This document shows, in pieces, positions 4,828-30,777 of a stretch of 64,000 nt of DNA. The notes beneath the pieces are model-generated. The model searched no databases. It saw only the letters and a list, made by a program, of their open reading frames with translations, and was not told the DNA's origin. Made by a program: the position numbers and the translations under genes. Each line of letters starts with the position of its first letter. Within the stretch, counting starts at the first letter, position 1. The DNA comes from Candidatus Moraniibacteriota bacterium (GTDB lineage Bacteria; Patescibacteriota; Minisyncoccia; Moranbacterales; UBA1568), in contig CP064975.1 in NCBI GenBank assembly GCA_016699425.1, forward strand, positions 1,149,369 to 1,213,368. Direction: 5' to 3'.

Positions 4828-5280
4828 ATGGACAAACTGCGCGTGATGCGGACTTCATCAGACTGGTCCAGGCGTGCTACTCGAGTGCTAGCCTGGGCGG
4901 CTGTTGTCGGAGTGTCCATCGTCATTTTCATCGCTGTCAGGTATGTCCTCGATGCCTACTGGAATGCCGAACGGCTGAAGGATGTCCAAGCGATCACGGT
5001 CGCTCTCCGTCAATATGCGGCAGATCACAAGGGCACATATCCAGCCGGACTTGATGCCGATGACAAGCAGCTGGGGAGTTCCTCAACCGGTTGTGAAATC
5101 ACTACCTCGCAGTGTTCAATTTCAATACCAAGTTGTCTCGATCTCACCCGAGAACTTGGGCCATACCTCGCTGAGATTCCTTCCGACCCTGCGAGGTGGG
5201 GCAAGACACGGACGCGGTATGCGGCCACAGTTGACCGGGATGGCGGACTACTCGTGACGGCGTGCGATTACTCGAAGTGA
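4828..5280 (+). CDS. Pilin-domain paralog lacking a canonical prepilin cleavage motif
   Basis: The C-terminal two thirds align with the two preceding pilins (KDVQAITVALRQYAADHKG...GLDADDKQLGSS...TACDYSK). The N-terminus is a plain TM anchor (VLAWAAVVGVSIVIFIAV) with no G|FTLIE motif. Confidence 0.5.
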   Translation: MDKLRVMRTSSDWSRRATRVLAWAAVVGVSIVIFIAVRYVLDAYWNAERLKDVQAITVALRQYAADHKGTYPAGLDADDKQLGSSSTGCEITTSQCSISIPSCLDLTRELGPYLAEIPSDPARWGKTRTRYAATVDRDGGLLVTACDYSK

Positions 5281-5322
5281 ATCATGACCTCTTCGTCGAG
5301 CAGGCGCAGGGGCACACATCGG

Positions 5323-5341
5323 CTGTGATGGTATACTGAAG
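5323..5341 (+). promoter_or_regulatory. Extended -10 promoter motif CTGTGATGGTATACT upstream of the first LytR_C gene
   Basis: TGgTATACT at 5330-5338. The same 14-mer TGTGATGGTATACT recurs upstream of the second LytR_C gene at 23493-23508. Confidence 0.5.
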
Positions 5342-5388
5342 AAAACCCGTCGGGCATGATGTCTTTTCCAGAATAAACACCAACCACT

Positions 5389-6045
5389 ATGAAAACACCC
5401 AAAGAGACAAAGGTGACGCAAGGAACGTCCACTTCAGCAATCCCTTCTTCCGGAGAAGAATTGACTGCGGCACCGGCGAGTGTCCCGGATGTGCCGACCG
5501 TTGGCAAGGCATCCCAGGAGCCGAATGAGGCTTTCCTCGGCAGTCTGCTCTTGTTCTGTCTCGTCCTCTCGCTCATCGCTGCCACCGGCTACTTCGGTTT
5601 TGCTGGGTACCGGTATTTCAAACAGACTCGGGCCGAGCAAGCCATCCCCTCGATCGACTCACTGCCGCGACCCGAGGTACCCGTGGCGATAGCGGAGCCG
5701 AAGGGTGAAGTGAAGCCATCAGAGGCGCCAGCTGCGACGGAGCAGACTTCAACAGTCGACAAGAAGACACTTGTAGTCAAAGTGCTGAATGGTGGATCGG
5801 CCAAGGGCGTAGCGGGGACGTATGCCGAAAAACTGAAGCAAGCGGGATTCGCCAAGACAACCATCGGGAACAGCTTCGGCAGCTATACTGGCCAGACCTT
5901 GTACTATGCCAAGGGGCAGGAAGCGGGATCCAAGGCGCTCAAAGAGGAAATCGTGAAGACCTATCCGGCACTCACGGTCAAGGAGGCTCTGCCTACTGAC
6001 AAAGATGCAGCGGCCGCGACCTTTGTTCTTATCCTCGGCCGCTAG
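5389..6045 (+). CDS. Membrane-anchored LytR_C (LytR/CpsA/Psr C-terminal) domain protein
   Basis: Single TM (LLLFCLVLSLIAATGYFGFAGY). C-terminal VKVLNGGSAKGVAG...GF...TIGNS...GQTLYYAKG matches the LytR_C pattern. Confidence 0.65.
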   Translation: MKTPKETKVTQGTSTSAIPSSGEELTAAPASVPDVPTVGKASQEPNEAFLGSLLLFCLVLSLIAATGYFGFAGYRYFKQTRAEQAIPSIDSLPRPEVPVAIAEPKGEVKPSEAPAATEQTSTVDKKTLVVKVLNGGSAKGVAGTYAEKLKQAGFAKTTIGNSFGSYTGQTLYYAKGQEAGSKALKEEIVKTYPALTVKEALPTDKDAAAATFVLILGR

Positions 6046-6078
6046 TCGCACGCTCCTTCGGAATATTATTTTCTTGCC

Positions 6079-7164
6079 ATGAGTATTTTCCGTCGCTGCC
6101 GAGAGCTTCTCCAGAAGGTGCTGGCGCTTCCCTTGGGGGTGTCGCTTTTGTTTGCGTTTCCGGCGAGCACGAACTTTCAATTGAAGGATTTCGGCTATGG
6201 CGGCGGCGGGGTGGCCAATGGGACCTCGACCAATTACGCCATCGAGGGTATCGCGGGTGAGCAGAACGCGACCGAGCTCAGTGGCACGACCTATGATCTG
6301 GGTCCTGGGCTGCAATTCACCAATCAAGCGAATGTGCCGCCAGCGCCGACCTTTACCAATCCAGCCAATTACTACAATAAACTGCAGCTGACACTGGCGA
6401 CCGGTGGAAATCCGAGCGATACCTTGTTCGCCATCGCCATTAGCACGGACAATTTCACGACAACGAACTATGTCCAGAGTGACAACACGGTGGGAGCTAC
6501 ACTCGGGCTCGAAGACTATCAGACGTATAGTGCTTGGGGTGGGGGATCGGGATTTCTGATTATTGGTCTCACAGCGTCGACGACGTACAAAGTGAAGGTG
6601 AAGGCTTGGCAGGGGAAATTCACCGAGACCGGGTATGGCCCAGAAGCGAGTGCTGCGACCGTCGGTGCCCGGCTGACCTTTGATATCGATGTCTCAGCCT
6701 CAGATACAGACACGGGGCCGCCCTATACGACGGACATCGGCAGTCTCATTGCGGGTACGGTGACCGATAGTCCAGAGAAGATCTGGGTCGATTTCGATAC
6801 AAATGGTGAGAGCGGTGGCCGAGTCTATGTCGTCGCTTCCAATGCCGGCCTTCAGAGCAGTCGGGCGGGCTACACGATCAGCTCGGTGACGGGTAATCTC
6901 ACGAGTCTCCCCGAAGGTTTCGGCGCTCAAGGTTCGAGTGCGACCCAGTCCGCGGGTGGTCCGTTTGCGGTCGCGACCGCCTACAACCTCGCCTCGAACA
7001 ATGTGGCGGTGACCGATACGACGATCCGAGAGATATTCACCTCGTCTGCTCCAGTGACGAGTGCCCGGGGATCGTTTCTCTTGAAGGCCAAATCCTCGGC
7101 GGTGACTCCGGCCGCCTCGGACTACACCGAAACCTTGACAGTTCTCGCTTCGGCAAGTTTCTGA
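6079..7164 (+). CDS. Secreted Thr/Gly-rich surface protein (paralog A) with a conserved C-terminal motif
   Basis: Signal peptide (LALPLGVSLLFAFPAS). Beta-rich low-complexity body. C-terminus ...AASDYTETLTVLASASF parallels the next gene. Confidence 0.5.
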   Translation: MSIFRRCRELLQKVLALPLGVSLLFAFPASTNFQLKDFGYGGGGVANGTSTNYAIEGIAGEQNATELSGTTYDLGPGLQFTNQANVPPAPTFTNPANYYNKLQLTLATGGNPSDTLFAIAISTDNFTTTNYVQSDNTVGATLGLEDYQTYSAWGGGSGFLIIGLTASTTYKVKVKAWQGKFTETGYGPEASAATVGARLTFDIDVSASDTDTGPPYTTDIGSLIAGTVTDSPEKIWVDFDTNGESGGRVYVVASNAGLQSSRAGYTISSVTGNLTSLPEGFGAQGSSATQSAGGPFAVATAYNLASNNVAVTDTTIREIFTSSAPVTSARGSFLLKAKSSAVTPAASDYTETLTVLASASF

Positions 7165-7233
7165 TCGGGTAGCCAAATCTGGATAGTATGTTGTATACTA
7201 TTATAAGTACCGTGTGAATAGGTGAGAGGATTA

Positions 7234-7262
7234 TTGACAGGCCACTTTTTTTCGTGTATACT
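7234..7262 (+). promoter_or_regulatory. Sigma70-type promoter TTGACA-17-TATACT
   Basis: TTGACA at 7234-7239, a 17-nt spacer, then TATACT at 7257-7262. Confidence 0.6.
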
Positions 7263-7277
7263 GGGTACATGAATGAG

Positions 7278-7313
7278 AAACGGGTGGCCATCATGGTATC
7301 CGTTTTCTTTTTT
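7278..7313 (+). terminator. Intrinsic-terminator-like hairpin plus U-tract in the leader of gene 7340 (alternatively the terminator of gene 6079..7164)
   Basis: Stem AAACGG / CCGTTT with a structured loop, followed by TCTTTTTT. Confidence 0.5.
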
Positions 7314-7339
7314 GGGATAGAATAAAATAAACATTCATT

Positions 7340-8401
7340 ATGGTCCGTTTCTCTGCAGTCCAAAAAACATCAATCCTTGAGATTTTCTCGCTGCTTTTGG
7401 TTGTCGTACTTCCATTGTTCCTTCCGACGCACTCGGCACAAGCAGCGGGTTTTCTTCAAACATGGGTGCGGCTTGATCGAATGAAAGCCTCGACCTTTAC
7501 GAGTGGCTTAGTGTGTGCTCAGACTCCGGCAACTGATACGGGCACCGAAGTCGATGTCCAAGTTGTCTTTCCGAGTGACTTTGTTGTTGGTACCACGCTC
7601 ACTGATTGGGCTGTGGCCACAACGGATCTTCCCTCGGGTGCTACGATATGGCCAGGCATTGGTCAAGCAACAGCGGCTAATAACACTACGAAAACAGTCA
7701 CTTTTCCATCAACCGCACTTACCACGAGCACGCTCTATTGCTTCCGGTGGACCAACAGTACAGCGGCCCTGCAAACTGGTTCAAGCGGAGCCAATAAGAC
7801 GGGTACCGTGACGACGCGGGCTACCGGACCGACAGATCTTGATTCCTCGGCATATTCGACGGCCATCGTTTCTGACGATCAGGTTGTCATTACAGCAACT
7901 GTTCCCGCCACGTTTAGTTTCAGTCTTCCCACTAACTCGATTGCGTTTCTATCCAATCTTACGACAACACCCGTTCTAACCAGTACCTCAGTAGCTACTA
8001 TCTCAACCAATGCAGCTTCGGGCTGGGTAGCCTGGGTGAAGAGTGCTAACGCTGCCCTCAGCTCGGTTTCGACTGGGGCATCGATACCAACTGCCGGATC
8101 GATTGATAATGCGGTGACAGATGTTGCTTCGACCAACGGATATTTCCTTGATGTTGCTTTCACAGATAGTGGCACTGGCACCGGGACTGTTACTCAAGCA
8201 GCTAATTATGGTCAGGAATACAATGGTGATGCTACGCATGGTGGGACACTTTCAACCACATTTCAACCAGTGGCTGCGAGTAGCGGTACTACTGACGGAG
8301 ATACGCTAACCTTTACGGCACTTGCAAGAATCTCGGCTATTCAGGCAGCAGCGACGGACTATACTGATACATTGACTATCGTGGCCGCGGGCCGGTTCTA
8401 A
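7340..8401 (+). CDS. Secreted Thr/Ala-rich surface protein (paralog B) with a conserved C-terminal motif
   Basis: Signal peptide ending SAQAAG. C-terminus ...AATDYTDTLTIVAAGRF parallels paralog A (DYT[ED]TLT[VI]xA..F). Confidence 0.5.
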   Translation: MVRFSAVQKTSILEIFSLLLVVVLPLFLPTHSAQAAGFLQTWVRLDRMKASTFTSGLVCAQTPATDTGTEVDVQVVFPSDFVVGTTLTDWAVATTDLPSGATIWPGIGQATAANNTTKTVTFPSTALTTSTLYCFRWTNSTAALQTGSSGANKTGTVTTRATGPTDLDSSAYSTAIVSDDQVVITATVPATFSFSLPTNSIAFLSNLTTTPVLTSTSVATISTNAASGWVAWVKSANAALSSVSTGASIPTAGSIDNAVTDVASTNGYFLDVAFTDSGTGTGTVTQAANYGQEYNGDATHGGTLSTTFQPVAASSGTTDGDTLTFTALARISAIQAAATDYTDTLTIVAAGRF

Positions 8402-8424
8402 AGGCAATTTTCAAAGTAACCACG

Positions 8425-8447
8425 AAATCCCCGTTCTGGGGATTTTT
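8425..8447 (+). terminator. Rho-independent terminator
   Basis: AAATCCCC-GTTCT-GGGGATTT followed by TTGC. Lies 24 nt after the 7340..8401 stop. Confidence 0.6.
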
Positions 8448-8563
8448 GCTTATTCTGGGCTCATTTCACGATTTCCGATATACTGGTAGTGAACCATTTT
8501 ATCTCTCCCCTACGACGCTCACGAAACCGATCCTGAGATATTCTTTCGCCCTGACGCTCGCGT

Positions 8564-9599
8564 TTGGGTTTTTCCTCCCCCCCACCCTCGCCTTCCGCCC
8601 AGGACGGATCCCTGCCTGACCGGCAGGCAGGCCTTCGCATCGTCACTTCCCCCCTCCCGATCTCACTCGTCGCCGAACCAGGGACGACCATCACGACCGA
8701 ACTGAAGGTGAAGAACGGCGGCACCGAACCTGAGACCCTGAAGATTGATATCCTGAAGTTCAACGCCTATGAAGACACGGGGAAGCCCGCCCTCCACGAC
8801 CTTGAACCGACGGATGAGTTCGCGAAATGGGTGACCTTCTCCGAACCGACCTTTACCGTGTTGCCCGAGGAGTGGAAGACGGTCACGGCCACGTTCACCG
8901 TCCCGGAGGAAGCCTCGTTCGGTTACTACTACGCCTTCGTTTTCTCTCGGGCCGAGGATCAGGAAGCCAAGCCTGGAGAGACGGCGGTCGTCGGCGGCAC
9001 GGCGACCCTCGTCCTCCTCGAAGCACGGGTACCAAATGCCTTGCGTGAGATCACCGTCACCGAGTTCTCGACGGACAAGACGGTCTATGAGTTCCTCCCG
9101 GTCAACTTCACCGTTTCTCTCAAGAATTCGGGCAATGTCCATGTCGCCCCGCGGGGCAATATCTTCCTCTCTCGGGGCAGTAACAAAGACATCGCCCTCC
9201 TCGAACTCAATTCCGGCAAGGGGAGCATCCTCCCGGATTCAACGCGTATCTTTGAGACGGGATGGAAGGATGGCTTCCCAGTTTACGAGGAAACGATCGA
9301 AAATGGCCAAGTCGTGCTCGATGAACTCGGTCATCAGACCTATCACCTGACCTGGGACTTCAAGAACGCTTCCCACCTCCCGTTTCGGCAAGTATACTGC
9401 CAAGATGCTCCTCGTTTACGATGATGGGACGCGGGACATCCCGATCGAGGGAGTGGTATCGTTTTGGGTGATGCCGTGGCGGTTGATTGCGGGGGCGGTG
9501 TTCAATTTCGCACTCATTATCGGACTCGGCTGGTATGTCATCCGCCTGCGCCGACGTTTGAAGCGGCTTCAATCAAATGATCAGTCACTCGTGAAATAG
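8564..9599 (+). pseudogene. Cell-surface beta-sandwich protein with a C-terminal TM anchor (duplicated family, copy 1); frameshifted
   Basis: Body ORF 8564..9424 continues as ORF 9405..9599 (TM tail WVMPWRLIAGAVF...) after a +1 C in a C-run near 9392. The signal-peptide region carries a further +C shift. Confidence 0.5.
8592..9530 (+). repeat. Tandem gene duplication, copy 1 (~940 bp, period ~1063 bp)
   Basis: Identical to 9655..10567 except for three short homopolymer indels. The shared antisense ORF N-termini (MNFRISIFRVSGSVPP...) confirm the repeat. Confidence 0.85.
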
Positions 9600-9602
9600 A
9601 GT

Positions 9603-10654
9603 ATGAAGTATTTCTTCCTCATCCTGACCATCGCTTTCCTCACCCCCTCCCTCGCTTCCGCCCAGGACGGATCCCTGCCTGACCGGCAGGCAGGCCTTCG
9701 CATCGTCACTTCCCCCCTCCCGATCTCACTCGTCGCCGAACCAGGGACGACCATCACGACCGAACTGAAGGTGAAGAACGGCGGCACCGAACCTGAGACC
9801 CTGAAGATTGATATCCTGAAGTTCAACGCCTATGAAGACACGGGGAAGCCCGCCCTCCACGACCTTGAACCGACGGATGAGTTCGCGAAATGGGTGACCT
9901 TCTCCGAACCGACCTTTACCGTGTTGCCCGAGGAGTGGAAGACGGTCACGGCCACGTTCACCGTCCCGGGAGGAAGCCTCGTTCGGTTACTACTACGCCT
10001 TCGTTTTCTCTCGGGCCGAGGATCAGGAAGCCAAGCCTGGAGAGACGGCGGTCGTCGGCGGCACGGCGACCCTCGTCCTCCTCGAAGCACGGGTACCAAA
10101 TGCCTTGCGTGAGATCACCGTCACCGAGTTCTCGACGGACAAGACGGTCTATGAGTTCCTCCCGGTCAACTTCACCGTTTCTCTCAAGAATTCGGGCAAT
10201 GTCCATGTCGCCCCGCGGCAATATCTTCCTCTCTCGGGGCAGTAACAAAGACATCGCCCTCCTCGAACTCAATTCCGGCAAGGGGAGCATCCTCCCGGAT
10301 TCAACGCGTATCTTTGAGACGGGATGGAAGGATGGCTTCCCAGTTTACGAGGAAACGATCGAAAATGGCCAAGTCGTGCTCGATGAACTCGGTCATCAGA
10401 CCTATCACCTGACCTGGGACTTCAAGAACGCTTCCCACCTCCGTTTCGGCAAGTATACTGCCAAGATGCTCCTCGTTTACGATGATGGGACGCGGGACAT
10501 CCCGATCGAGGGAGTGGTATCGTTTTGGGTGATGCCGTGGCGGTTGATTGCGGGGGCGGTGTTCATCGGCATCTTCTTCCTCATCGGTATGAAGTCAACT
10601 CTCTCAAAAATATGGAAACGTCTCTTCTCGCGTTCATCCGAAACTTCTGTCTGA
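9603..10654 (+). pseudogene. Cell-surface beta-sandwich protein with a C-terminal TM anchor (duplicated family, copy 2); two frameshifts
   Basis: Good signal peptide MKYFFLILTIAFLTPSLASA. A +G at about 9967 and a -GG at about 10212, relative to copy 1, split the reading frame across ORFs 9603.. and 9890..10654. Confidence 0.5.
9655..10567 (+). repeat. Tandem gene duplication, copy 2
   Basis: See copy 1. The flanking signal-peptide and C-terminal tail regions differ between the two copies. Confidence 0.85.
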
Positions 10655-11568
10655 TGCGGACTTGTTGGTGTCTTATTTTTGCCCTGTCGATACTCCTGTT
10701 GTACACCTCGATTGCTCAGGGTGCGGGTTTCACGGTGACCCCGATGATTCAGGAAGTAGTCTTGGGCGAAGGTGAAGCAGCGAAGACATACGACGCGACG
10801 GTTGCCAATGAGAGTGACAGTCTGGCGACACTTGAAATTTCAGTTATTGACTTTGGCAGCTTGGATGAATCCGGAGGCGTCGCATTCCTCGGTGCGTCGG
10901 GCGAATTGGACGAGCGGTATGCGCTCGCTTCTTGGATGCAGCCGGAGACAAGCGAGGTCACCCTCCAGCCCGGTGAGGTACGATCGGTCAAAGTGCGGAT
11001 TGAGAATCGTGAGAGTTTGTCGCCAGGTGGGCACTATGGGGCGCTGGTGTTCAAGACAGTCTCAACCACCAAACCAGATATCCCAAGTGTCGCCATCAAT
11101 CAGATATTTTCGTCGCTCGTTCTCGTGAAGAAAACTGGTGGGGCGGTTTACGGCCTTGATTTGGTCTCGGTCGAACATCCGGATCAGGTGTTTTCATTCG
11201 GCGCCACGGTTGTACCGCGTTTCAAGAATCCTGGCAATGTCCATGTCGTCCCTCGCGGCGTGGCGAGCGTGACGGATCCGTTGGGCCGGCTCGTCTATCG
11301 AGGCGTCCTCAATGAGGGGTCTGCCATTATCCTGCCTGAGACATTCCGTGAATTCCCGTTCAAGCTTTTCCCTGTGGAGAAAGCCTTTGTTCCAGGAGCG
11401 TATGTTCTGACGCTTCAGTACCGCTATGATGGGAAGGACGCCTTTGAGACCTGGTCGAAGCGTTCCTTCCTATTCCCTCCACTCCTTACGAGTATCTTGG
11501 CCGCACTTTTCACTCTCAGTCTTGTCGCCTTCGGTGTCCTCCGACGTCGAGGTCGCCGGTCTGTCTAG
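10654..11568 (+). CDS. Cell-surface beta-sandwich protein with a C-terminal TM anchor (diverged intact paralog of the duplicated family)
   Basis: ATG at 10654. Signal peptide ...SIAQGAG. Conserved FKNPGNVHVVPRG vs LKNSGNVHVAPRG in the duplicates. C-terminal TM plus basic tail RRRGRRSV. Confidence 0.6.
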   Translation: MRTCWCLIFALSILLLYTSIAQGAGFTVTPMIQEVVLGEGEAAKTYDATVANESDSLATLEISVIDFGSLDESGGVAFLGASGELDERYALASWMQPETSEVTLQPGEVRSVKVRIENRESLSPGGHYGALVFKTVSTTKPDIPSVAINQIFSSLVLVKKTGGAVYGLDLVSVEHPDQVFSFGATVVPRFKNPGNVHVVPRGVASVTDPLGRLVYRGVLNEGSAIILPETFREFPFKLFPVEKAFVPGAYVLTLQYRYDGKDAFETWSKRSFLFPPLLTSILAALFTLSLVAFGVLRRRGRRSV

Positions 11569-12373: not shown

Positions 12374-15300
12374 ATGTTGTCACCCAAAAAACACAAGCTC
12401 AAATCAAAAAATATTCAGCGCTCATTCCGCCGGTACTTCCCCGGTGTGGTTGGATTTTTTCTGCTCACGCTTGCATCGTTTCTCATCGCGACGGACATCG
12501 ATGCGGCGACGGGTATCAACAAGCAAATCAGTTTTCAGGGCAAGGTCGTGAATACGAACGGGACGAATGTCTCGAACGGGAGCTACAACTTCCTGTTCTG
12601 TCTCTACACGACTGCGAGTCCAGCGACGCCGTGTACGGCTGGATCAAACAATGATGCGGTCTGGCGTGAATCAAAAAGTCTCACGGTCACGGACGGCATC
12701 TTCCAATCAAATCTCGGCGATACTACAGCGCTCCCGGGTTCGGTGGATTTCAATACAGACAATATTTATCTCGGCATAAATTTCAATAGCGACGGGCAGA
12801 TGTCACCGCTTGTCCGATTCACGGCTGCGCCGTACGCGATGAACGCAGCGAAGGTCGGCGGGCTGACGGTGACGGACACGACCGGCACGCTCACGATCCC
12901 AAACGCCAAGACCGTTCAATTTGCGGATGCGTTTACGACGACGGGTGCATTTCCGTTGACACTGACGTCGACGGCCAGTACGACGGCGACACTGCCTTCG
13001 GGAACGATCACTCTGGTCGACCTGGCAACATCACAGTCGCTTACCAACAAAACAATCGGTTCGACAGGACTGACATTTTCCGGTGCGTCGACGGATATCA
13101 CGACGGCCACGGGCGAGGACCTGACAGTGGTGGCCAATGGGGCCGGGATAATCAATCTCAATGATTCGGTCACGACCGGTGCGCTCACCATTTCTGGTGC
13201 GACCACGGACATCACCACCGCATCGGGCGAGTCACTCGTCATCGTCGCCAACGGAGCGGGGGTCGTCGATATCCAGGATGCGACGACGGTGGATTCGCTC
13301 ACCGCAGACACCGGCGGCGTCTCGATCGCTAGTGGACAGAGCTATACCGGTGCCGGCGCGGTCACGCTTTCATCGGCTGCGACGACCGCCCTCACCGTCG
13401 ATTCGGGGACGACCGGTGCACTCAATCTCGGGACCAGCAACAATGCGAAGACCATCTCACTTGGTACCGGTACCGCCGGCAACACGATCAATGTCGGGAC
13501 AGACAACACGACCAAGGACACGATCAATATCGGCTCGGCGCTCGATGATGTCGCTATCACTGGCGACCAATGGAGTATCACGAATGCGGGAGTCTTGACC
13601 GTGGTGTCGTGTAGTGGGTGCGGGGGAGGCGGAGGGACACTCGATAGCGCGTACACGGCTGGCAATACGATTACAACGGACAGTGGGAACAATGTCATCA
13701 TCACGCTTCAAGAGGTGGCGACCCCGACATCGTTCGTCGTCGAGAATCAGGATACGGCGGGCGTCTCGGCGGAGCGGGTCTTCAACTCGATCGCCTCTGG
13801 CACGCTCACCAATGGACTGCTCATCGAACAGGCCGGTGCAGGTACGATGACCAATGCCATCCAGATTGCCGAGACCGCCGGGACCATCACTGATGGCATC
13901 CTCATCACTGGCACACTGGGCAATATCTTGAACTCCCCCTCGCTCGATATCACGGGTGCAGGGGCCATCACTGGTGCGACCGGGATTACCTCGGCGACGG
14001 GGGATATCACCGCTACGGCAGGGAACATCGTCTTGAATAGCACAACGCGGATCTCAAATGCTGGTGTCGGTACATTCATCACAGGCACAGTGATCGGTTC
14101 GCAGACCTTTACGACCAACAATATCGCTGACTCAGGCGCACTCACGATTGCTTCTGCTGCCGCATCGGCCCTGACCCTGAACTCGGGCACGACTGGGACG
14201 ATCGATATCGGGACAGATGCCAGCGCTGAGACGATCAATATCGGCAATACCGGTGCGGCCGTGAAGACGATCGCGATCGGCAACAACTCACAGGCCAACA
14301 CCATCACCATTGGTGATGCGTCGGCGACGAGCGTCTCCATCACGGACAATAACTGGTCGATTTCAACAGCGGGTGCTGGGGCATTTACTTCACTCTCATC
14401 CACGGGTGCCATCGCTGCCAACGGTGGCATCACCTTCGACAACACCTCCGACACCGTTGGTTCCTTCACCTCATCCGGCACCATCCTGATGAACTCGAAC
14501 ATCCTCCAAGATATCGGCAACACCGGTACCGACTTCATCGCCAGTACCGGAGCCCTCACCCTCGCCGGCGTGCTGACAGCCAATGGCGGCATCACCTTAG
14601 CGGGGAGCCAGTCCTTCGCGGCTTCCGCCCTCTCCTATATGGACCTCGGTCTCATCACGCACAGTACGACTGCCAATCAAGGCCTCCGTCTCCCCAATGC
14701 GGCGAGTGCTACCCCGTCCAACCCAACCTCAGGGGAAGGCTATCTCGCGTGGGATGCCGCGGGGAATCAGCTCATTACGTACAATGGGAGCGCGTGGACG
14801 ACTTTGACCGGCAGTGCTTCAGATCTCCAAACTGCCTATAATACCGACGCTGACGGATCGAACGCGACCATCTCCCTCACTGCCGCTGATGACGGCCTCA
14901 TCATCACCAACCCTACCTCAGCCGGTAACAACCTCTCCGCCTTCACCCTCCAAGTCTCCCAGCTCAATACGACCGCGGCGATCACGGCTATTGATATCAT
15001 CCAAGCGAGCAATGCGGCGAACGGGGTTGACATCACCGCCAACGCCATTGATACGGAAACAGCGCTCGCCGTGACGGCCAATGTTCTGACTTCCGGCAGA
15101 GCCCTCACCCTCGCCTCCTCCTCCGTCGCCTTCACCGGTGCCCTCGAATCCATCACCCTCTCTGGCTCCAATGCCGCCAATACCGGCAATCTCCTCCTCA
15201 TCGCTGACACCGGTGCTCTCAATACCACCACCTCCTTCAAAGTCACCGCCAATGGGGCGGCTACTCAGGTTGCTGCCTTGATCGAAAACACCGGCTCCGG

Positions 15301-18300
15301 TACGAGCTTCCGTGTCAACGATGTCGCCAGTGACACCGACCCCTTCCTCATCGACGCGACTGGCAATGTCGGTATCGGCGACGCTACCCCGAACACGATT
15401 CTGGACGTTCTCTCCTCGGGTGCCGCGGACACGGTCTTCACCCTGGCCAATACCAATGCTGGTGACTTTGATCCGATCGTGAAGTTTGAACTCACCGAAG
15501 GCACCCCCCTCTTCACCCTCGGCATCGATGACTCAGACTCCGACAAGTTCAAGATCTACTCTGGGGATGGTCTCGCCAGTGGGGATGAGTTTGTCATTGA
15601 CGCGAGCGGTACCACCACCATCGCTAACCTCAACCTGGGCGCTACCTCCTTTGATACCGATGCTGGGGCCGTGACCTGGATCGATATGCCGGTGACGAGC
15701 GGGGCGGCGGACAATACGGTGGAATCGTACACGTCGCAGCTCGATGGCCAGAGTATGCTCACGGTGTACGCCCTCTCCGATGGGGCGGGGAGCATCGATA
15801 CTCGGCGTGTCCAGCTCGGGGACGGCGGGGCAGGTGTGGCTCAGCCGGTTCTGCTTGGATTGGATGTCCGGACAGGCACGGGGGATCCGACGGATGGTTT
15901 CGAAGGGGCCATGTACTACAACACGACGGACAATGTCTTCCGCTGTTACCAAAACACCGGCTGGACGAACTGCATCGGTTCGGGTGGTTCCACCGACCTC
16001 CAGACCGCCTACAACACGGACGCTGACGGTACCAACGCGACTATCTCCCTCACCGCCGCTGACGATGGCCTCATCATCACCAACCCGACCTCGGCCGGCA
16101 ACAACCTCTCCGCCTTCACCCTCCAAGTCTCTCAGCTCAACACGACTGCTGCGATCACGGCCATCGATATCATCCAGGCATCCAATGCGGCGAACGGCGT
16201 CGACATTACCGCCAACGCGATCGATACCGAGACGGCCCTGACGGTCACTGCCAATGCGCTGACGACGGGCCGGGGCCTCTCGATCGATGCGGGCAATACG
16301 ATGACGACGGGCGGCGCGCTCAGTATCAGCGGTACGACCTATGTTCATGGCGCGGAGACGGGGAGCCTTGTGAGCTTGGCCGTTACCGACGCGACGACGG
16401 CGGCAGTAACCAGTACGACCAACACCCTTCTCGTATCGCCCACGATCAATGCTCCCTCGGGTGCCGCAACGAGAACTATAAGCGGTGTTTCTGTCACTCC
16501 GACAACGACGGCCTGTGCCGCCGGTACCTGTGCCGTGAACGGTTTCAATGTGGGCGCTATCACCGAAGGTGCTGACGCAGCGAGATTCGCGAGTACAGCA
16601 CTCAATATCGGCACGGGTTGGGACACCTTCCTCGACACGGCTTCCCTTGATATCACCGGCGCGGGGGCCATCACCGGCGCGACGGGTGTTTCGACTACGA
16701 CGGTGACGGCCTCATCCACCATCGCGGCCAATGGTGGCATCACCTTCGACAACAACACCGACACCGTCGGCTCGTTCACCTCATCCGGCACCATCCTGAT
16801 GAACTCGAACATCCTGCAGGATATCGGCAATACCGGCACTGACTTCATCGCCAGTACCGGGGCCCTCACCCTCGCCGGCGTCCTCACAGCGAACGGCGGC
16901 ATCACCCTCGCGGCGAGCCAGACCTTCACGGGTTCGTCGCTCTCGTACATGGACCTGGGTGCCATCACGCACGGGACGACGGCAGTGCAGGGACTCCGAT
17001 TGCCGCAGGCGGCGAGCGCCAGCCCGTCGAGTCCGAGCTCGGGCGAGGGTTACCTGGCCTGGGACGCGGGCGGCAACCAGGTCATCTATTACAACGGCGC
17101 GGCCTGGGCGACATTTGGTGCGGGCGGCGGTTATAATTTGATCAAAGATGAAGCCTCAAGCCTTACGGCCCGGACCACGCTCGCCTTCCTCGGTGCGGGC
17201 GTATCGTGTGCGGACAATGCGTCGCAGACCGAGTGTACGATTTCAGGCGGCGCGGGCTCGGATCTGCAGGGGACCTATGGCGCTGATGCCGATGGTTCGA
17301 ATGCGACCATCTCGCTCACCAGCGCGGATGACTCGCTCGTCATCCGTAACCCGTCCTCGGCGGGCACCGACTCGGCCTTTACCTTCAAGGTGGAACAGCT
17401 CAATACCGGGATCGACAATGACGTCATCTATGCCGACAACCGCGGCACGGGCGACGGTCTCCGTATCGATGACACGTCTGGTGATACGACACCGTTTATC
17501 GTTGACCAGCATGGTCGGGTAGGCATCGGGACAGCGTCTATAAGTGGAAATGCTTCCACAGAGCGTCTGTTACAGGTTGGTTCCGAGACTACGCGCGGAA
17601 ATTCGGCGACCTATGGGGAAATAATCAGTAAGGGGCTGAATAGGCATACAGCTCTCACCAACATTCAAGACATCTTTGTCTATGATACGACAGGGGATAG
17701 TGATGGCGGACGTTGGATCGATTGGGCGACCACGGACAACCTGTCTTGGTACTCTGAAACACTTGATGATGGACCAAATGATCCGTGTAATATTGCCAGC
17801 GATGACCGTTGCTATAATAGCTCTTTTCCCCGGAAAGCCATCCTGGTCGTAACGACCGATGCTCTCTATATCTTCGACGCAGCGACGAACGACATGTGGA
17901 TGAAGTTTAGTCAGAATGCTTCGGGATATGCTCTCGGGGTAGATACCAACAATGATCCCTCGAGTGTTCATGCGCTGAATGGTGTCGTCTATGTTGGTGC
18001 CAACGGTACATCAGCTGGTGGTTTGTACGCCATCGACTTCGTGAATGATCGCATGTGGAACTACGGTGGCACCAATCGTTCTGCGGCGGATACTGGTATC
18101 AGCGGACGCAATGCTGCGGTGACATACAATGTCGACAGCAATGCCAAGCTTGAAATCTCACCCGTTGGGACACAGGCAGAATGGGAGCGAGTGAACGATG
18201 TCCATGCAGTGGTGATGTCGCGCACCCAATCAGCGGTAACGGCTCTCGGTAGTGCAACCAATACGAACCCTGGCTATGGTAAAGTCTTTATTGGACTTGC

Positions 18301-21300
18301 GACCGACTCTGGGGTAACGATAATCAACCCATCGGGCCAAGTCTTGAACCAGTATTCGGATGTCACCGCCGATGATTACACAGCGGTCGCACTCTCAAGC
18401 AGAGGGTTTATGTATGCGCTCAATACCACGCAGGACCAACTCGAGCGCTGGGATACGATTGACACTGATAAGGCGAGTGAGGTGAATGGTACGTTTAGTC
18501 GTAAATGGGATGAGACGATTGGGACTGGCCCAGCCCTCGCTTCGGCGACCTTCAATATTGTGGCTGGGATGCCAGATAACCTGGAGATTGCCGAACGCGC
18601 CTCGAATAATTTGAACACGGAAGACGTTATTTATGTTGGCCATAGTCTTGGCATGGCGGAACTGCATGAACATACGACGCAGGCCTTTGGCTGGGTCAAG
18701 CATTACAATGCAACCCGTCAAACGCCGATGATGATGCTCGCTGGTATAAATGATATGGTGCTTCCCATGGACGATACCTCTGGAACCCAGGCGCAGGACC
18801 TCGCTATCGCCAATACGGACATGGCCATCAAAGGAACACCAACGCTCGGGGTGAACGGTGTGCAGGGCAAGGCAATAAACTTCGATAATACCGACGATTA
18901 TCTGTGTTCTGATAATGATCAGAACAATACCTGCGATGTCGATACCGCTTTTAATATGTCGACGGTCGGTTGGACGCTCAGTCTGTGGTTTCGGCATTCG
19001 ACCACAGCACCGGCCTCGGGTGTCGATATGCTTTTTGAAAAATGCGTGACGGCGACACCGGGCCAGGCGATAGGCTGCGTAGCCGCCTACATGACTACTA
19101 CCGGTGTAGTAGTAGTTGCCAATGATGATGATGCGACTTGGACCCAAGGGTCGTCGTATGATATTACCGCTACCTCGACCTATGCTTACAATGACAACCA
19201 GTGGCACAACCTGATTATCACAAGAACCAACGCCAACGACGTGGATTCCTGGATCGATGGGCAGGGCATGAACCTTTCCACGGCTACCGGTCTGACAGCT
19301 ACGTTTGACGGTTCGCAGATCGTCAGTATTGGTGCTTCCTGTGTGACGACAGTGACCGCCAACTGTGGTGCAGCCACAAATTTCTGGGATGGCCAAATTG
19401 ACGATGTGCAATACATTGTCGGGACAACGACACAAGCGACCATGACTCAGCTCTATGTTCGCCGGTATTTCAATGTGGAACGACCCCGGGCGAGCAAGAA
19501 AACGGTATCTGTGACCAACGCTACCTCAGCTTCCTCGACTTCTTTGACCGATACGGGGGAGGCTTGGTATGTAAACGAATTTGCCGGACAGATTGTCGAG
19601 ATTACGGGGAGTGACGATGCGGATTGTATCGGCATCACACGACGTATCTCCTCCAACACGGCCACAGCACTCACTTTTACCCCGGCCGTACCGGGAGCGT
19701 GTACCATGGATACTTCGGCTGACTTTCGGATTGATCCAGAGAAGCTCTATGGTGCATCGAGTAGTATTGCCGGCATCGGCATTACGGCAGAAACGCCGCT
19801 TGGTGAAGCCCGTCAACTGTGTGTGGGAACCAATAGTGGCACCGATACGGGTGGTGTGACTTGTTATAACCATCAAGACGGCCCGAGTATCGTGGCTGAC
19901 GTCTATCATAGCCAAGCGAGCAAAACAGATGATAGCGGCACGGACTGGACAGGAACGGATTATGACGACATACGGGCAGTCGATCTTTCTTCTCGAACGC
20001 TCATCATAGCTTCCGAAGGACACTTTACCAGCAGAACGGAAGACGTGCGTCTGGGGCAAGGTCTGGAATATATCAGTAACCAACTCTATGCCATTCGTCA
20101 GGAAATCGTTCTCGACGGTATCACAGCGGTCGGGAGTACGGGTTCAGAAATCGGTTTCACTGGTGGGGCGGACTTGGCGGAGCGGTACTATTCGAATGAG
20201 GCGCTCGTAGCGGGCGAGGTGGTCGCGATTGATTCGTCTCTGGAGGCGGGCGTGAAGAAAACTGTCGGGGCGTATCAGCGTGATGTGCTCGGTATAGTGG
20301 CGACGACTCCTGGCATCGTCCTCGGCGCCGAGGCGGAAAACGGGTATCCGATCGCGCTCGTCGGCCGTGTCCCGGTGAAGGTGACGAATGAAAATGGCCA
20401 GATCTATGCGGGTGACCGGGTGACCGCCGCGAGCCGGCCGGGTCATGCCATGCTCGCGACTCAGGCCGGCCGCGTCATCGGCCAGGCGCTGGGCGATGCG
20501 GTCGACTGGACGGTCTGTGAAGGGGAGGACCCGTTGAATCACGATGCCGTACTCTGCACGACGGTCATGGTCTTCGTCAATCTGTCGGACTACTACGGCC
20601 AGCCAGTCGAGCTCGCCATGGCGGCCCGTGATGCGGCGGATGCAGCTCTGGCTCCGGAGGTCGGGGACGAGGAGCTGGGACTGTCCGGTGCGGGTACTAC
20701 GGTCCGGCTCGTGACGGCCGCTCCGACACGGGAGGAGAAAATCATGGCGTTTCTGAAGGAAATCCGTGACGAGCGGGCGCAGTCAAACGCTGCTCCGTCC
20801 GAAGTCTTCACCGATCGGGTGGCTGCCAGTACCGAGATCATCACACCGAAATTGATCGTCGATGAGATATTTGCGAAGTCGATCAAGGCGGACAGTATCG
20901 AAGGGCTGTCTATCTGGACGGATCAGATTGCATCACTCCAGGAAAAGTATGCTGGGCTCGAGGCGGCTCCTCTGACGGATACGACTGGTACCTCGGCTGT
21001 GCCTCCATCCCTCGCGGTCGCGATGAAACAGCTCGCCACGGATTCGATCACGGTGCAGCTCGATGGTTCTATCCTCGGCAAACTCTCGGTCGAGGGGGCA
21101 CTCCGGATTGGCGGGGATGCACAGTTCGATGGCAACACGGTCTTTGCCAGGCTCGCCTCCTTCCTCGGCGATACGTTGTTCCAGGGCAAGGTGTTCTTTG
21201 AGCAAGCACCGACCTTTGGTTCAAATACGGCGGGCTTCGCCCTCATCGAACAGGGAGCGAAACACGTGCGGGTGAGTTTCGATGAGTCGTATGAGGAGCA

Positions 21301-21769
21301 ACCGATCGTGACCATCACCCTCGCCCGCGACACCTCACTCCTCCTCGATGAAGCAGCCAGTGCTGAGCTGAAGGCCGATGTTGCCGCAGTGGACCAGGAC
21401 TTCGCCGAGACGGTCTTCGAGAGTGATGTCCGGTATATCATCACTGAGAAAGACCAGACGGGCTTCACCATCCTGCTCTCGGAGGCGGCGCCGGTCGATC
21501 TCCAGTTCAGCTGGGTCGCGCTCGCCGTGAAAGGCGCGAAGCCTTTTGTCTCGGACAAGCGTGAAACGTCAAACCAGGGAGAGAGTGAGACAGTAATACC
21601 GGTACCGGAACCCGCGACCCCTCCATCTCAAGTAGGGGTGGAACCAGAACCGGCACCGACGCCACTCCCCGAGACCCTGCCCGCGGATACCTCATCTGAC
21701 GAAGCGTCTCCTCCAGACACGGATCCACCGGTGGCCTCCTCGGACATCCCGCCCTCGGGCACCATCTAA
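12374..21769 (+). CDS. Giant (3131 aa) cell-surface fibre/adhesin-like protein
   Basis: Uninterrupted ATG ORF. N-terminal signal-anchor. Long Thr/Gly/Ala-rich beta-strand repeats (ITGAGAITGATGIT...). A large internal repeat pair. A LamG/concanavalin-like segment at about 18.8-19.5 kb. A Pro-rich C-terminal tail. Confidence 0.85.
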   Translation: MLSPKKHKLKSKNIQRSFRRYFPGVVGFFLLTLASFLIATDIDAATGINKQISFQGKVVNTNGTNVSNGSYNFLFCLYTTASPATPCTAGSNNDAVWRESKSLTVTDGIFQSNLGDTTALPGSVDFNTDNIYLGINFNSDGQMSPLVRFTAAPYAMNAAKVGGLTVTDTTGTLTIPNAKTVQFADAFTTTGAFPLTLTSTASTTATLPSGTITLVDLATSQSLTNKTIGSTGLTFSGASTDITTATGEDLTVVANGAGIINLNDSVTTGALTISGATTDITTASGESLVIVANGAGVVDIQDATTVDSLTADTGGVSIASGQSYTGAGAVTLSSAATTALTVDSGTTGALNLGTSNNAKTISLGTGTAGNTINVGTDNTTKDTINIGSALDDVAITGDQWSITNAGVLTVVSCSGCGGGGGTLDSAYTAGNTITTDSGNNVIITLQEVATPTSFVVENQDTAGVSAERVFNSIASGTLTNGLLIEQAGAGTMTNAIQIAETAGTITDGILITGTLGNILNSPSLDITGAGAITGATGITSATGDITATAGNIVLNSTTRISNAGVGTFITGTVIGSQTFTTNNIADSGALTIASAAASALTLNSGTTGTIDIGTDASAETINIGNTGAAVKTIAIGNNSQANTITIGDASATSVSITDNNWSISTAGAGAFTSLSSTGAIAANGGITFDNTSDTVGSFTSSGTILMNSNILQDIGNTGTDFIASTGALTLAGVLTANGGITLAGSQSFAASALSYMDLGLITHSTTANQGLRLPNAASATPSNPTSGEGYLAWDAAGNQLITYNGSAWTTLTGSASDLQTAYNTDADGSNATISLTAADDGLIITNPTSAGNNLSAFTLQVSQLNTTAAITAIDIIQASNAANGVDITANAIDTETALAVTANVLTSGRALTLASSSVAFTGALESITLSGSNAANTGNLLLIADTGALNTTTSFKVTANGAATQVAALIENTGSGTSFRVNDVASDTDPFLIDATGNVGIGDATPNTILDVLSSGAADTVFTLANTNAGDFDPIVKFELTEGTPLFTLGIDDSDSDKFKIYSGDGLASGDEFVIDASGTTTIANLNLGATSFDTDAGAVTWIDMPVTSGAADNTVESYTSQLDGQSMLTVYALSDGAGSIDTRRVQLGDGGAGVAQPVLLGLDVRTGTGDPTDGFEGAMYYNTTDNVFRCYQNTGWTNCIGSGGSTDLQTAYNTDADGTNATISLTAADDGLIITNPTSAGNNLSAFTLQVSQLNTTAAITAIDIIQASNAANGVDITANAIDTETALTVTANALTTGRGLSIDAGNTMTTGGALSISGTTYVHGAETGSLVSLAVTDATTAAVTSTTNTLLVSPTINAPSGAATRTISGVSVTPTTTACAAGTCAVNGFNVGAITEGADAARFASTALNIGTGWDTFLDTASLDITGAGAITGATGVSTTTVTASSTIAANGGITFDNNTDTVGSFTSSGTILMNSNILQDIGNTGTDFIASTGALTLAGVLTANGGITLAASQTFTGSSLSYMDLGAITHGTTAVQGLRLPQAASASPSSPSSGEGYLAWDAGGNQVIYYNGAAWATFGAGGGYNLIKDEASSLTARTTLAFLGAGVSCADNASQTECTISGGAGSDLQGTYGADADGSNATISLTSADDSLVIRNPSSAGTDSAFTFKVEQLNTGIDNDVIYADNRGTGDGLRIDDTSGDTTPFIVDQHGRVGIGTASISGNASTERLLQVGSETTRGNSATYGEIISKGLNRHTALTNIQDIFVYDTTGDSDGGRWIDWATTDNLSWYSETLDDGPNDPCNIASDDRCYNSSFPRKAILVVTTDALYIFDAATNDMWMKFSQNASGYALGVDTNNDPSSVHALNGVVYVGANGTSAGGLYAIDFVNDRMWNYGGTNRSAADTGISGRNAAVTYNVDSNAKLEISPVGTQAEWERVNDVHAVVMSRTQSAVTALGSATNTNPGYGKVFIGLATDSGVTIINPSGQVLNQYSDVTADDYTAVALSSRGFMYALNTTQDQLERWDTIDTDKASEVNGTFSRKWDETIGTGPALASATFNIVAGMPDNLEIAERASNNLNTEDVIYVGHSLGMAELHEHTTQAFGWVKHYNATRQTPMMMLAGINDMVLPMDDTSGTQAQDLAIANTDMAIKGTPTLGVNGVQGKAINFDNTDDYLCSDNDQNNTCDVDTAFNMSTVGWTLSLWFRHSTTAPASGVDMLFEKCVTATPGQAIGCVAAYMTTTGVVVVANDDDATWTQGSSYDITATSTYAYNDNQWHNLIITRTNANDVDSWIDGQGMNLSTATGLTATFDGSQIVSIGASCVTTVTANCGAATNFWDGQIDDVQYIVGTTTQATMTQLYVRRYFNVERPRASKKTVSVTNATSASSTSLTDTGEAWYVNEFAGQIVEITGSDDADCIGITRRISSNTATALTFTPAVPGACTMDTSADFRIDPEKLYGASSSIAGIGITAETPLGEARQLCVGTNSGTDTGGVTCYNHQDGPSIVADVYHSQASKTDDSGTDWTGTDYDDIRAVDLSSRTLIIASEGHFTSRTEDVRLGQGLEYISNQLYAIRQEIVLDGITAVGSTGSEIGFTGGADLAERYYSNEALVAGEVVAIDSSLEAGVKKTVGAYQRDVLGIVATTPGIVLGAEAENGYPIALVGRVPVKVTNENGQIYAGDRVTAASRPGHAMLATQAGRVIGQALGDAVDWTVCEGEDPLNHDAVLCTTVMVFVNLSDYYGQPVELAMAARDAADAALAPEVGDEELGLSGAGTTVRLVTAAPTREEKIMAFLKEIRDERAQSNAAPSEVFTDRVAASTEIITPKLIVDEIFAKSIKADSIEGLSIWTDQIASLQEKYAGLEAAPLTDTTGTSAVPPSLAVAMKQLATDSITVQLDGSILGKLSVEGALRIGGDAQFDGNTVFARLASFLGDTLFQGKVFFEQAPTFGSNTAGFALIEQGAKHVRVSFDESYEEQPIVTITLARDTSLLLDEAASAELKADVAAVDQDFAETVFESDVRYIITEKDQTGFTILLSEAAPVDLQFSWVALAVKGAKPFVSDKRETSNQGESETVIPVPEPATPPSQVGVEPEPAPTPLPETLPADTSSDEASPPDTDPPVASSDIPPSGTI
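14822..15075 (+). repeat. Intragenic repeat unit B, copy 1 (DLQTAYNTDADG...IDTETAL module)
   Basis: Roughly 90% nucleotide and near-identical amino-acid match to 15995..16250. A second module (ANGGITFDN...YNGSAWTT) also recurs, at about 14397-14810 and 16720-17110. Confidence 0.8.
15995..16250 (+). repeat. Intragenic repeat unit B, copy 2
   Basis: See copy 1. Synonymous-site divergence suggests an old duplication maintained at the protein level. Confidence 0.8.
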
Positions 21770-28750: not shown

Positions 28751-28906
28751 TTGGACGGATCGATTCGAGCTCCTGAGCTTTCCTTGAAGGGTAGCCGCCG
28801 CGACGGTTGCCTTTTTTCTTTTCTTCCCTATAATGAGAACGTTGCCTACGAGGCAGCTTAACAATCGAATATTCCGGCGTAGCTCAGTGGTAGAGCAGGT
28901 GACTGT

Positions 28907-29480
28907 GGACATATGGATGGTATACCGATGAATGGATGCCAGACACAAGAACCTATGCTGATCGTCGAGAGTACTTGAAACGGGCGGTTGCCAAACGGCG
29001 CAAGGCCGTGCGGAGGCGCGCGATCGAGTACAAAGGCGGAAAGTGTTCCCGTTGCGGTTATAAACGGTGTCAAGACGCGCTCGAATTCCATCATGCCCAT
29101 GGCGGCAAGGATTTCGGGATTCCTCAGGATGGACTCACTCGAAGTTGGGACAGAGTCCGAGAGGAAATAGACAAGTGCATCTTGGTATGCGCCAATTGCC
29201 ATAGGGAGGAACACGCAGAATTACGCAGCCTTTCGGAGAAATCCGAGAGTGATAAATGAGGTGAATTGCTGGAAGCCTACGGTCGATCAGCTCGGCTATG
29301 GTAATCAGCAGCCAAGCCCCAGTTTGTATTGGGGAAGGTTCAGAGACTATCTCGCAAGAGAGTACTTCGATATCATACGATATCGCGGGAAGCGCCTCAC
29401 TCCTAAGTCCGCTCTGTGAAGACAGATGACGGAGACGGAGATGATATAGTCCATTCTTTTCGGAAACGAAGAGGGAAATG
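28907..29480 (+). mobile_element. Group I self-splicing intron carrying an HNH endonuclease ORF
   Basis: Conserved core elements are readable: P AATTGCTGGAAG (29265-76), Q AATCAGCAGCC (29303-13), R GTTCAGAGACTA (29338-49), S ATGATATAGTCC (29441-52). U precedes the 5' splice site and G ends the intron. Confidence 0.75.
28936..29259 (+). CDS. HNH homing-type endonuclease encoded within the group I intron
   Basis: CSRCGY...LEFHHAHGGKDF...CILVCANCHREEH is an HNH / zinc-finger motif. Lies in a peripheral loop 5' of the P3-P9 core. Confidence 0.8.
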   Translation: MPDTRTYADRREYLKRAVAKRRKAVRRRAIEYKGGKCSRCGYKRCQDALEFHHAHGGKDFGIPQDGLTRSWDRVREEIDKCILVCANCHREEHAELRSLSEKSESDK

Positions 29481-29514
29481 TAATCACTTGGTCGTAGGTT
29501 CGAACCCTACCGCC

Positions 29515-29600
29515 GGAGCAGTTAAATTCAAGGCTTACTCAAGCCTTGTTTTTTGTTACCCTTCATGAAGGTTAGAACCTGGTATAATCAGGGTATGAAT
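29515..29600 (+). repeat. Intergenic cassette A: tRNA 3' end + terminator + GTTACCCT + extended -10 (TGgTATAAT at 29580-88)
   Basis: Homologous to cassettes at 30262..30345 and 34012..34090. The -10 lies 6 nt before the ATG at 29595. Confidence 0.6.
29530..29554 (+). terminator. Rho-independent terminator after the tRNA (part of repeated cassette A)
   Basis: AAGGCTT-ACTC-AAGCCTT followed by GTTTTTT. Confidence 0.65.
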
Positions 29601-30211: not shown

Positions 30212-30261
30212 ATATTCTCGTACTGGCGTAAAATTACGGTTCTAACACCATTCACGATGCG

Positions 30262-30345
30262 GAGCAATGAAATGTGAGGCTTACTGAAGCCTCTTTTTTG
30301 TGCCACAAGGAGTAGGTTAGAACCTGGTATACTTTCGATATGAAA
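30262..30345 (+). repeat. Intergenic cassette B: terminator + extended -10 (TGgTATACT at 30326-34), 6 nt before the ATG at 30341
   Basis: Near-identical hairpin and GGTTAGAACCTGGTATA motif to cassette A. Confidence 0.6.
30276..30299 (+). terminator. Rho-independent terminator (cassette B)
   Basis: GAGGCTT-ACTG-AAGCCTC followed by TTTTTTG. Confidence 0.6.
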
Positions 30346-30737: not shown

Positions 30738-30777
30738 AAGTCTCAATTACCACCCACAAATTGATAAGTAATTCAAT

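Follow-up and report, generated by a model that had tools for sequence, protein, structure and literature searches.

Frameshifted tandem surface-protein genes in a Moranbacteria genome: probable residual long-read errors in paralogs apparently kept alike by gene conversion

Two neighbouring genes for a predicted surface protein in the genome of an uncultured Candidatus Moraniibacteriota bacterium (CP064975.1) share a core of about 900 bp in which insertions and deletions (indels) are the only differences, and as assembled neither of them can be read in one frame. We designate them A1 (copy 1) and A2 (copy 2), and the diverged, intact paralog that follows them B; all coordinates are those of the window, by which we mean the whole stretch of 64,000 nucleotides analysed here (positions 1,149,369 to 1,213,368 of the contig). 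The locus raises a twofold question: do the frame breaks belong to the organism or to its assembly, and how did two genes with unlike ends come to have the same middle? An earlier note on this DNA, made from its letters alone, had proposed an assembly or sequencing error in a collapsed repeat, a recent duplication followed by decay, or slipped-strand switching of expression. The evidence laid out below indicates that the four frame-breaking indels are very probably artefacts of a known kind, namely residual Nanopore R9.4.1 consensus errors, and that A1 and A2 are, as far as the comparison of sequences tells, real and old tandem paralogs under concerted evolution by interlocus gene conversion.

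Frame breaks within an exact tandem repeat

Local alignment of copy 1 with copy 2 yields four gap-free blocks (Table 1) with 910 aligned bases, no mismatch and a period of 1061-1064 nt, which bears out the near-identical tandem repeat and the indels that the earlier note had listed. Over these 910 bp the cores differ by three indels and no substitution, the paired versions found across the three sites being GTCCCGGAGGAAG versus GTCCCGGGAGGAAG, CCCGCGGGGCAATA versus CCCGCGGCAATA and CACCTCCGTTTCG versus CACCTCCCGTTTCG, with CGTCCCGGGAGGAAGC, CCCCGCGGCAATATC and CCACCTCCCGTTTCGG as examples of frameshifted k-mers. Each core lesion is confined to one copy, and the sister copy is in-frame at the same site. 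The fourth lesion is in the leader of copy 1, and at all four the runs consist of C or G and are 1-4 nt long. In three-frame translation, reading through takes two corrections in copy 1 (in the leader and at 9379) and two in copy 2 (at 9968 and at 10216/7), and B (10654-11568) is open throughout, just as the earlier note had it for all three genes. The A1/A2 pair is the sole near-perfect long repeat of the 64-kb window, in which the next best repeats are 83-84% identical.

The near-identity of the cores raises the possibility that the duplication itself is an assembly artefact, in which one gene was wrongly doubled; a contig with a single gene that combines copy-1-side upstream sequence with a copy-2 tail (L002) could be cited in its favor. 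However, copy 1 and copy 2 differ in both their leaders (8512-8590 versus 9603-9654) and their tails (9505-9599 versus 10566-10654), and each of the two tail classes is conserved in other genomes. Furthermore, L001, an independent short-read (SPAdes) contig from another metagenome (ENA ERZ15185479) that is 97.9% identical over 9421-10952 of the window, runs from tail 1 through leader 2 and copy 2 into the beginning of B, and contains the junction of tail 1 with leader 2. The order A-A-B also recurs in more than 20 related loci from many projects. On these grounds a doubled gene is barely credible, and the argument made before us, that the unlike ends exclude a simple assembly duplication, finds independent confirmation in L001.

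Homologs of the broken genes are intact. In L001 copy 2 is uninterrupted and encodes 350 amino acids (aa); the copy 2 of the window, once repaired, likewise encodes 350 aa and is identical to the L001 product (P0001) at 349 of the 350 positions, and L002 is in-frame at all three core lesion sites. Eighty related loci served as protein queries and for frame counts: 102 of their 103 A-type genes are in a single frame, and the frame changes near 9380, 9968 and 10216 of the window are supported by 108, 106 and about 100 homologous query open reading frames (ORFs), respectively. Between 2.5 and 17 kb these are the only frame changes with support from many homologs. Exact-protein look-ups for same-strain short-read contigs found none on record; the queries were paralog B, the proteins encoded upstream (353 aa) and downstream (208 aa), and QQR78612.1.

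About 40 other genes of the window were checked by Pfam domain coverage, and only BipA/TypA (57179-58968, + strand) was found to be split, into two ORFs of 166 aa and 430 aa. Its GTP_EFTU domain is in 57179-57679 and its domains II-C in 57676-58968, with the break within the G domain near 57660-57679, at a short G run. It is likely that a base is missing here (GAAG[G]CGG), which would be a residual assembly indel in single-copy sequence; the assembly therefore does carry residual indel errors. Frameshifts at the overlapping ORF pairs 2963/3558, 24270/24391, 31348/32258 and 40537/40769/41070 were considered and rejected, as Pfam coverage, wherever there was a match, identifies ordinary gene boundaries or shadow ORFs, and the suspected pair 1160/1395 had no Pfam match. 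Four of the five lesions fall within 3% of the window, an outcome to which uniform placement gives a probability of ~6e-6 (our own arithmetic, with detection outside the locus incomplete), and lesion density in the repeat is about 100-fold that of the rest of the window.

The way in which this genome was assembled offers a probable explanation for such clustering. According to its entry in Supplementary Data 3 of Singleton et al. 2021 (PMC8012365), CP064975 is the circular bin EsbW_18-Q3-R4-48_MAXAC.278_cln, classified there as Patescibacteria; Paceibacteria_A; Moranbacterales; UBA1568, with a coverage of 9.8x in Illumina and 18.4x in Nanopore reads. The pipeline used R9.4.1 reads called with Guppy 2.2.3 flip-flop, CANU 1.8, Racon and two rounds of medaka 0.6.5, and for the final polish Illumina reads (2x150 bp, insert 300-400 bp) were mapped with minimap2 and passed to Racon a single time (PMC8012365); the identical tract, at 910 bp, is longer than that insert. 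A long-read-first assembly at low depth would leave Nanopore R9.4.1 consensus indels, and during Racon polishing each Illumina read would be placed at a single best position. Reads covering an error in one copy would align better to the error-free copy, and the error would be left uncovered and uncorrected because the matching reads go to the repeat's other instance.

Residual long-read errors are mostly homopolymer indels (Wick & Holt 2022, the Polypolish paper, PMC8812927), and the case in Figure 1A of that paper closely parallels the present one: the assembly is long-read-first with one placement per short read before Racon, the indels affect short homopolymers and are each found in one instance of an exact repeat exceeding the insert size, and errors elsewhere in the window have been almost all corrected. 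The present case differs in that it concerns a low-coverage metagenome bin (10x Illumina, 18x Nanopore) rather than an isolate, and in that one lesion is at the edge of the tract. We infer that the reads of sample EsbW_18-Q3-R4-48 (PRJNA629478) show intact frames at the lesion sites. Of the error in a collapsed repeat that had been suggested earlier, the error is favored by the evidence and the collapse falls away, as the Nanopore reads resolved the repeat and it was the short reads that could not polish it.

The sole split A-type gene among the relatives is the third copy of L007, a Microflora Danica metagenome-assembled genome (MAG; MFD04651.bin.1.47, CAVZUR010000003.1), which the names of its isolate and contig suggest to have been assembled from long reads. 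Its A genes (4982-8051) form a tandem of three with tails of classes X, 1 and 2, as defined below, and copy 3 differs from copy 2 by two single-base deletions (one reduces C5 to C4 in the leader, the other CCAGGG to CCGGG) and two substitutions over 920 bp. L007 has another frameshift in an unrelated gene at ~2720, and across all other loci there is one further well-supported frameshift, which is in L017 and outside the A-type genes.

Copy-specific indels in two long-read MAGs, and the location of the window's lesions in homopolymer-like runs of a surface-protein gene, bring to mind phase variation, in which slipped-strand mispairing at short C/G runs would toggle both genes and conversion from the sister copy, which is on hand as a repair template, might reset them. 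The leader of copy 1 moreover contains a C7 run (8577-8583). Frame-breaking length changes in the C/G runs of a surface-protein gene are indeed shared with the phase-variable contingency loci of Neisseria, Haemophilus and Campylobacter, but the homopolymer tracts of such loci are typically of roughly 7 or more nt, and slipped-strand switching is unlikely here because the lesion tracts, at 1-4 nt, are too short. Four separate switching sites would be needed, the lesion sites of L007 are not those of the window, and the C7 run is not the point at which the frame breaks relative to the relatives. Nor is there any variation in tract length among the 102 related in-frame genes, or in L001 and L002. 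The switching proposed in the earlier note is accordingly extremely improbable, and residual consensus error remains the explanation that we adopt for the indels.

Concerted evolution of A1 and A2

A scan of the GTDB species representatives yielded 78 loci. Many of the related loci have the gene order A-A-B, some have A-B, and one (L007) has A-A-A-B, so that the copy number of A-type genes ranges from 1 to 3. The C-terminal tails of their products form three classes that track gene position, namely X (…IPALLVYFFMKWRMR…), 1 (…NFALIIGLGWYVIRLRRRLKRLQ…) and 2 (…FIGIFFLIGMKSTLSKIWKRLF…), and in the window copy 1 has a tail of class 1 and copy 2 a tail of class 2. In 17 other genomes the A cores are 97-100% identical at the DNA level within a genome, over ~880-970 bp; the identity of the core proteins rounds to 100% within genomes and is 58-89% between them. 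For 34 of 34 genes in this set the nearest core is that of the same-genome partner, and for 34 of 34 the closest tail belongs to another genome and is of the same class (34-79% identity, versus 10-35% to the tail of their own partner). The identity tract begins near the signal-peptide cleavage site and in every case ends just past an FWVxPWR motif, where the transmembrane helix begins, and the core boundaries of the window pair are at matching protein positions in 18 relatives.

This combination of cores and tails is the classical signature of interlocus gene conversion, and a recent duplication is therefore the wrong description of the pair. We rejected it on the further ground that the position-specific tail classes are conserved across Moranbacterales and beyond. 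Duplication followed by decay, as the earlier note would have it, thus gives way to a conserved two-gene layout, an identity that is attributable to conversion, and a core with 0 substitutions in 910 bp. Within a genome, recurrent gene conversion would hold A1 and A2 identical over their cores, the ~900 bp that encode the ectodomain; the conversion tract halts at the start of the transmembrane helix, and hence each gene would retain its own conserved tail class. L002 (Logan ERR8482637, 1464 bp) has a single copy, with an upstream region of the copy-1 side that includes a different signal peptide and a tail as in copy 2. Its single copy and the triple copy of L007 can both be understood as the expected products of unequal exchange between cores.

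Concerted evolution by gene conversion has been defined in previous studies (PMC3924837, PMC8223754). As in known concerted paralogs, A1 and A2 are alike within a genome and divergent between genomes, their flanks follow orthology, and the tract boundaries are sharp. Bacterial instances of such evolution include tufA/tufB in Salmonella and the rRNA operons. Unlike in those, the homogenised part in A1 and A2 is exactly the ectodomain of a surface protein, and the transmembrane and cytoplasmic tails, and mostly the signal peptides too, have stayed distinct across order-level divergence. A search of the available literature for gene conversion in Patescibacteria gave nothing specific. We regard A1/A2 as a real, hitherto undescribed case of a known process, in a surface-protein family of these bacteria about which little is known.

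The beginning of A1 requires separate comment. Downstream of the TATACT box (Table 1) no canonical in-frame start codon was found for copy 1: position 8512 reads ACG, aligned with an ATG in L003, L002 and L082, and the sole in-frame start is a TTG at 8446, within the terminator hairpin. A short out-of-frame ORF begins 4 nt past the box, with a GTG at 8489. An ATG-to-ACG sequencing error was considered as the cause of the lost start and ruled out, since L081 (680-960), an independent JGI contig from a related species, also lacks an in-frame canonical start there. It has the same layout: an out-of-frame ATG is 4 nt past the box, the aligned position reads ACG, and ATG occurs in frame solely inside the hairpin; because this independent contig shares the missing start, the latter is not an error of the present assembly. 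A1 might use an upstream start or a non-canonical one, or might be untranslated and yet be kept alike by conversion.

It is conceivable that the frameshifts are real and that both copies are recently inactivated pseudogenes, dispensable thanks to the intact B or because the need for them was lost. Both are broken as assembled, the lack of a canonical start in copy 1 and in the independent assembly of a related species may mean that A1 is degenerating, the third copy of L007 is frameshifted as well, and the reduced genomes of this group shed genes readily. However, four independent indels accompanied by 0 substitutions in 910 bp are unlike mutational decay, and frequent conversion should have copied or erased the indels, yet each of them stays in one copy. 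Moreover, 102 of 103 relatives have the gene intact, as does a 98%-identical strain, the lesions concentrate in precisely the one stretch to which short reads cannot be assigned, and a housekeeping gene, BipA, has the same kind of lesion. Inactivation of both copies in the organism is, in our judgement, unlikely.

A further variant with real, copy-specific frameshifts can be imagined, in which indels silence the copies and conversion from the sister copy restores them, amounting to a stochastic on/off system that works without long repeat tracts. If so, the indels of the window and of L007 would be snapshots of on/off switching in Patescibacteria. We hold such a system to be decidedly unlikely as the source of the indels seen here.

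Several observations nevertheless count against the account that we prefer, of polishing errors in paralogs homogenised by conversion. The leader lesion (8591-8596) coincides with the edge of the identical tract and is outside its interior. A 2-nt deletion in a G4 run and three 1-nt insertions differ from the most typical error of R9.4.1, homopolymer deletion. The copy-specific indels of L007, a second long-read MAG, can be claimed as biological recurrence. To judge by its start region, A1 may in this lineage be out of the ordinary or no longer fully functional. Finally, the 100% core identity seen in short-read assemblies may be partly forced by the resolution of loops in the de Bruijn graph; the long-read loci (the window, L007 and L038) still have 99-100% core identity, and several short-read loci resolve differences of 1-3%.

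Gene organization and protein family

The coordinates of the locus are collected in Table 1. A hairpin ends the upstream gene and the spacing of the following genes is tight or overlapping (the stop codon of copy 1 is followed after 3 nt by the ATG of copy 2, whose own stop codon and the ATG of B overlap), for which reasons A1-A2-B looks like one operon, with the hairpin looking like the mark of the beginning of its region. The TATACT box would have a promoter-like role, and both A1 and A2 would appear to be expressed. Nearly all related loci have B next after the A genes. As assembled, the ORF at 8564-9424 (286 aa) has a product identical to QQR78612.1, described as 'MAG: Fn3-like domain-containing protein [Candidatus Moraniibacteriota bacterium]'. 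The neighbourhood is one of cell-surface genes, with those for PilC, pilin-like N_methyl proteins, LytR_C proteins and a downstream surface protein of 3131 aa. The gene predicted for this last protein (12374-21769, + strand) is directly downstream of the cluster, is intact despite its size, and has internal repeats of ~300 nt that are 83-84% identical (14409/16719 and 14822/15995).

Table 1. Coordinates of the A1-A2-B locus and of the intron-containing tRNA gene in the window
Feature	Position	Strand	Remarks
Terminator-like hairpin of upstream gene (7340-8401)	8424-8446	+	10-bp stem followed by a T run; also in relatives
-10-like TATACT box upstream of copy 1	8479-8484	+	invariant across five A1 leaders from independent assemblies
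Copy 1 (A1)	8512-9599	+	signal-peptide-like leader 8512-8590, ectodomain core, class-1 transmembrane tail (NFALIIGLGWYVIRLRRRLKRLQ...)
Copy 1 leader lesion, extra C	within 8591-8596	+	placeable as GC[C]TTCC or TTC[C]GCC
Identical core, instance 1	8592-9504	+	mature ectodomain through first residues of transmembrane helix; local alignment
Copy 1 lesion, extra C	9379	+	CCTCCG to CCTCCCG
Copy 2 (A2)	9603-10654	+	ATG start, signal peptide, identical core, class-2 tail (FIGIFFLIGMKSTLSKIWKRLF...)
Identical core, instance 2	9655-10565	+	local alignment
Copy 2 lesion, extra G	9968	+	CCGGAGG to CCGGGAGG; directly before the invariant EASFGYYYA motif
Copy 2 lesion, GG lost after 10216	10216-10217	+	CGCGGGGCAA to CGCGGCAA
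Identical block 1	8592-8904 = 9655-9967		313 nt; local alignment
Identical block 2	8905-9152 = 9969-10216		248 nt; local alignment
Identical block 3	9155-9378 = 10217-10440		224 nt; local alignment
Identical block 4	9380-9504 = 10441-10565		125 nt; local alignment
Paralog B	10654-11568	+	304 aa, intact, ~25% identical to A, weak WxLIP_PGBD match
tRNA-Asn exon 1	28873-28906	+	ARAGORN -i, Rfam
tRNA-Asn intron	28907-29480	+	ARAGORN -i, Rfam
tRNA-Asn exon 2	29481-29518	+	ARAGORN -i, Rfam

Each A gene would encode a membrane-anchored surface protein in which a signal peptide is followed by two immunoglobulin (Ig)-like beta-sandwich domains and, at the C terminus, by a transmembrane helix that carries a basic tail. 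The product of the repaired copy 2 matches PF06280 (fn3_5) with 31.7 bits (cutoff 27.6), and this domain is above threshold in 29 of 29 family members. An AlphaFold2 model of A, made with 29 homologs, has a mean pLDDT of 79, with an N-terminal helix at residues 2-12 and a C-terminal helix at 313-343; in this model the N-terminal helix may be read as the signal peptide and the beta strands as the two Ig-like beta-sandwich domains. In Foldseek searches against the PDB the matches are to two-Ig-domain proteins, such as usher chaperones, RbmA and the Enterococcus WxLIP structures 9i1y and 9i25, with TM-scores of 0.3-0.4.

The WxLIP proteins of the WxL clusters of Firmicutes have the architecture DUF916-DUF3324-transmembrane helix (Hassan et al. 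2023, PMC10599100). Membership in such a cluster was assessed by Pfam and NCBIfam searches on A, B and their neighbours, by two AlphaFold2 models and by two Foldseek searches against the PDB. The A proteins resemble WxLIP in their signal peptide, two Ig-like domains and C-terminal transmembrane helix, and in that their genes cluster with those for further beta-rich secreted proteins and for a surface protein of giant size. They differ from it in several respects. The matches to PF06030 (WxLIP_PGBD) are sub-threshold (A 14.5 bits, B 19.4 bits, cutoff 27.3), with weak matches in only 6 of 29 family members, and there is no match to DUF3324. No WxL-domain partner was detected adjacent to the genes: the products of 6079-7164 and 7340-8401 are without a WxL Pfam match, and the model of the 353-aa upstream protein resembles generic Ig-like adhesin folds alone in Foldseek-PDB. 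The fold matches to 9i25_C and 9i1y_A (E 1.7e-9 to 3.4e-9, TM 0.33-0.41, ranks 7 and 12) are no better than those to usher chaperones and RbmA, with Cep192 also similar. A and B were accordingly rejected as WxLIP members on the basis of the sub-threshold Pfam scores, the missing DUF3324 and the missing WxL-domain neighbour, and the resemblance is one of architecture only.

Other features of the window and significance of the locus

Elsewhere in the window, a gene for tRNA-Asn(GUU) (28873-29518, + strand) has its anticodon loop interrupted by a group I intron of 574 nt (Rfam RF00028, 76.3 bits). ARAGORN with default settings reports no tRNA for the window, the option -i brings out the intron, and the spliced sequence takes a clean 73-nt tRNA-Asn fold. 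The 5' part of the intron contains an ORF of 107 aa (28936-29259) with an HNH-like motif (CSRCGY...HH...CANCHREEH), and this is probably a homing endonuclease. We know of no group I introns in tRNA-Asn. Just downstream of this tRNA is a low-GC island at ~30000-34000, with a GC content of 0.40 against 0.55 elsewhere, which contains ABC-transporter genes, including an ATPase (31348-32343) and an ABC-2 permease (33108-33917). The island may have been acquired horizontally at the tRNA.

Returning to A1 and A2, a reading of the assembly at face value would wrongly make pseudogenes of two conserved genes for surface proteins in a reference MAG described as 'complete', and the same polishing failure should affect any exact repeat in the ~1000 MAGs that came from this pipeline. 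In Moranbacteria and related Patescibacteria, 1-3 genes in tandem encode a surface protein with two Ig domains and a membrane anchor; these organisms live in attachment to host cells, and hardly any of their surface proteins have been characterised. As the ectodomains are identical and the transmembrane and cytoplasmic tails have long been distinct, the pair suggests selection for one ectodomain displayed on different anchors.

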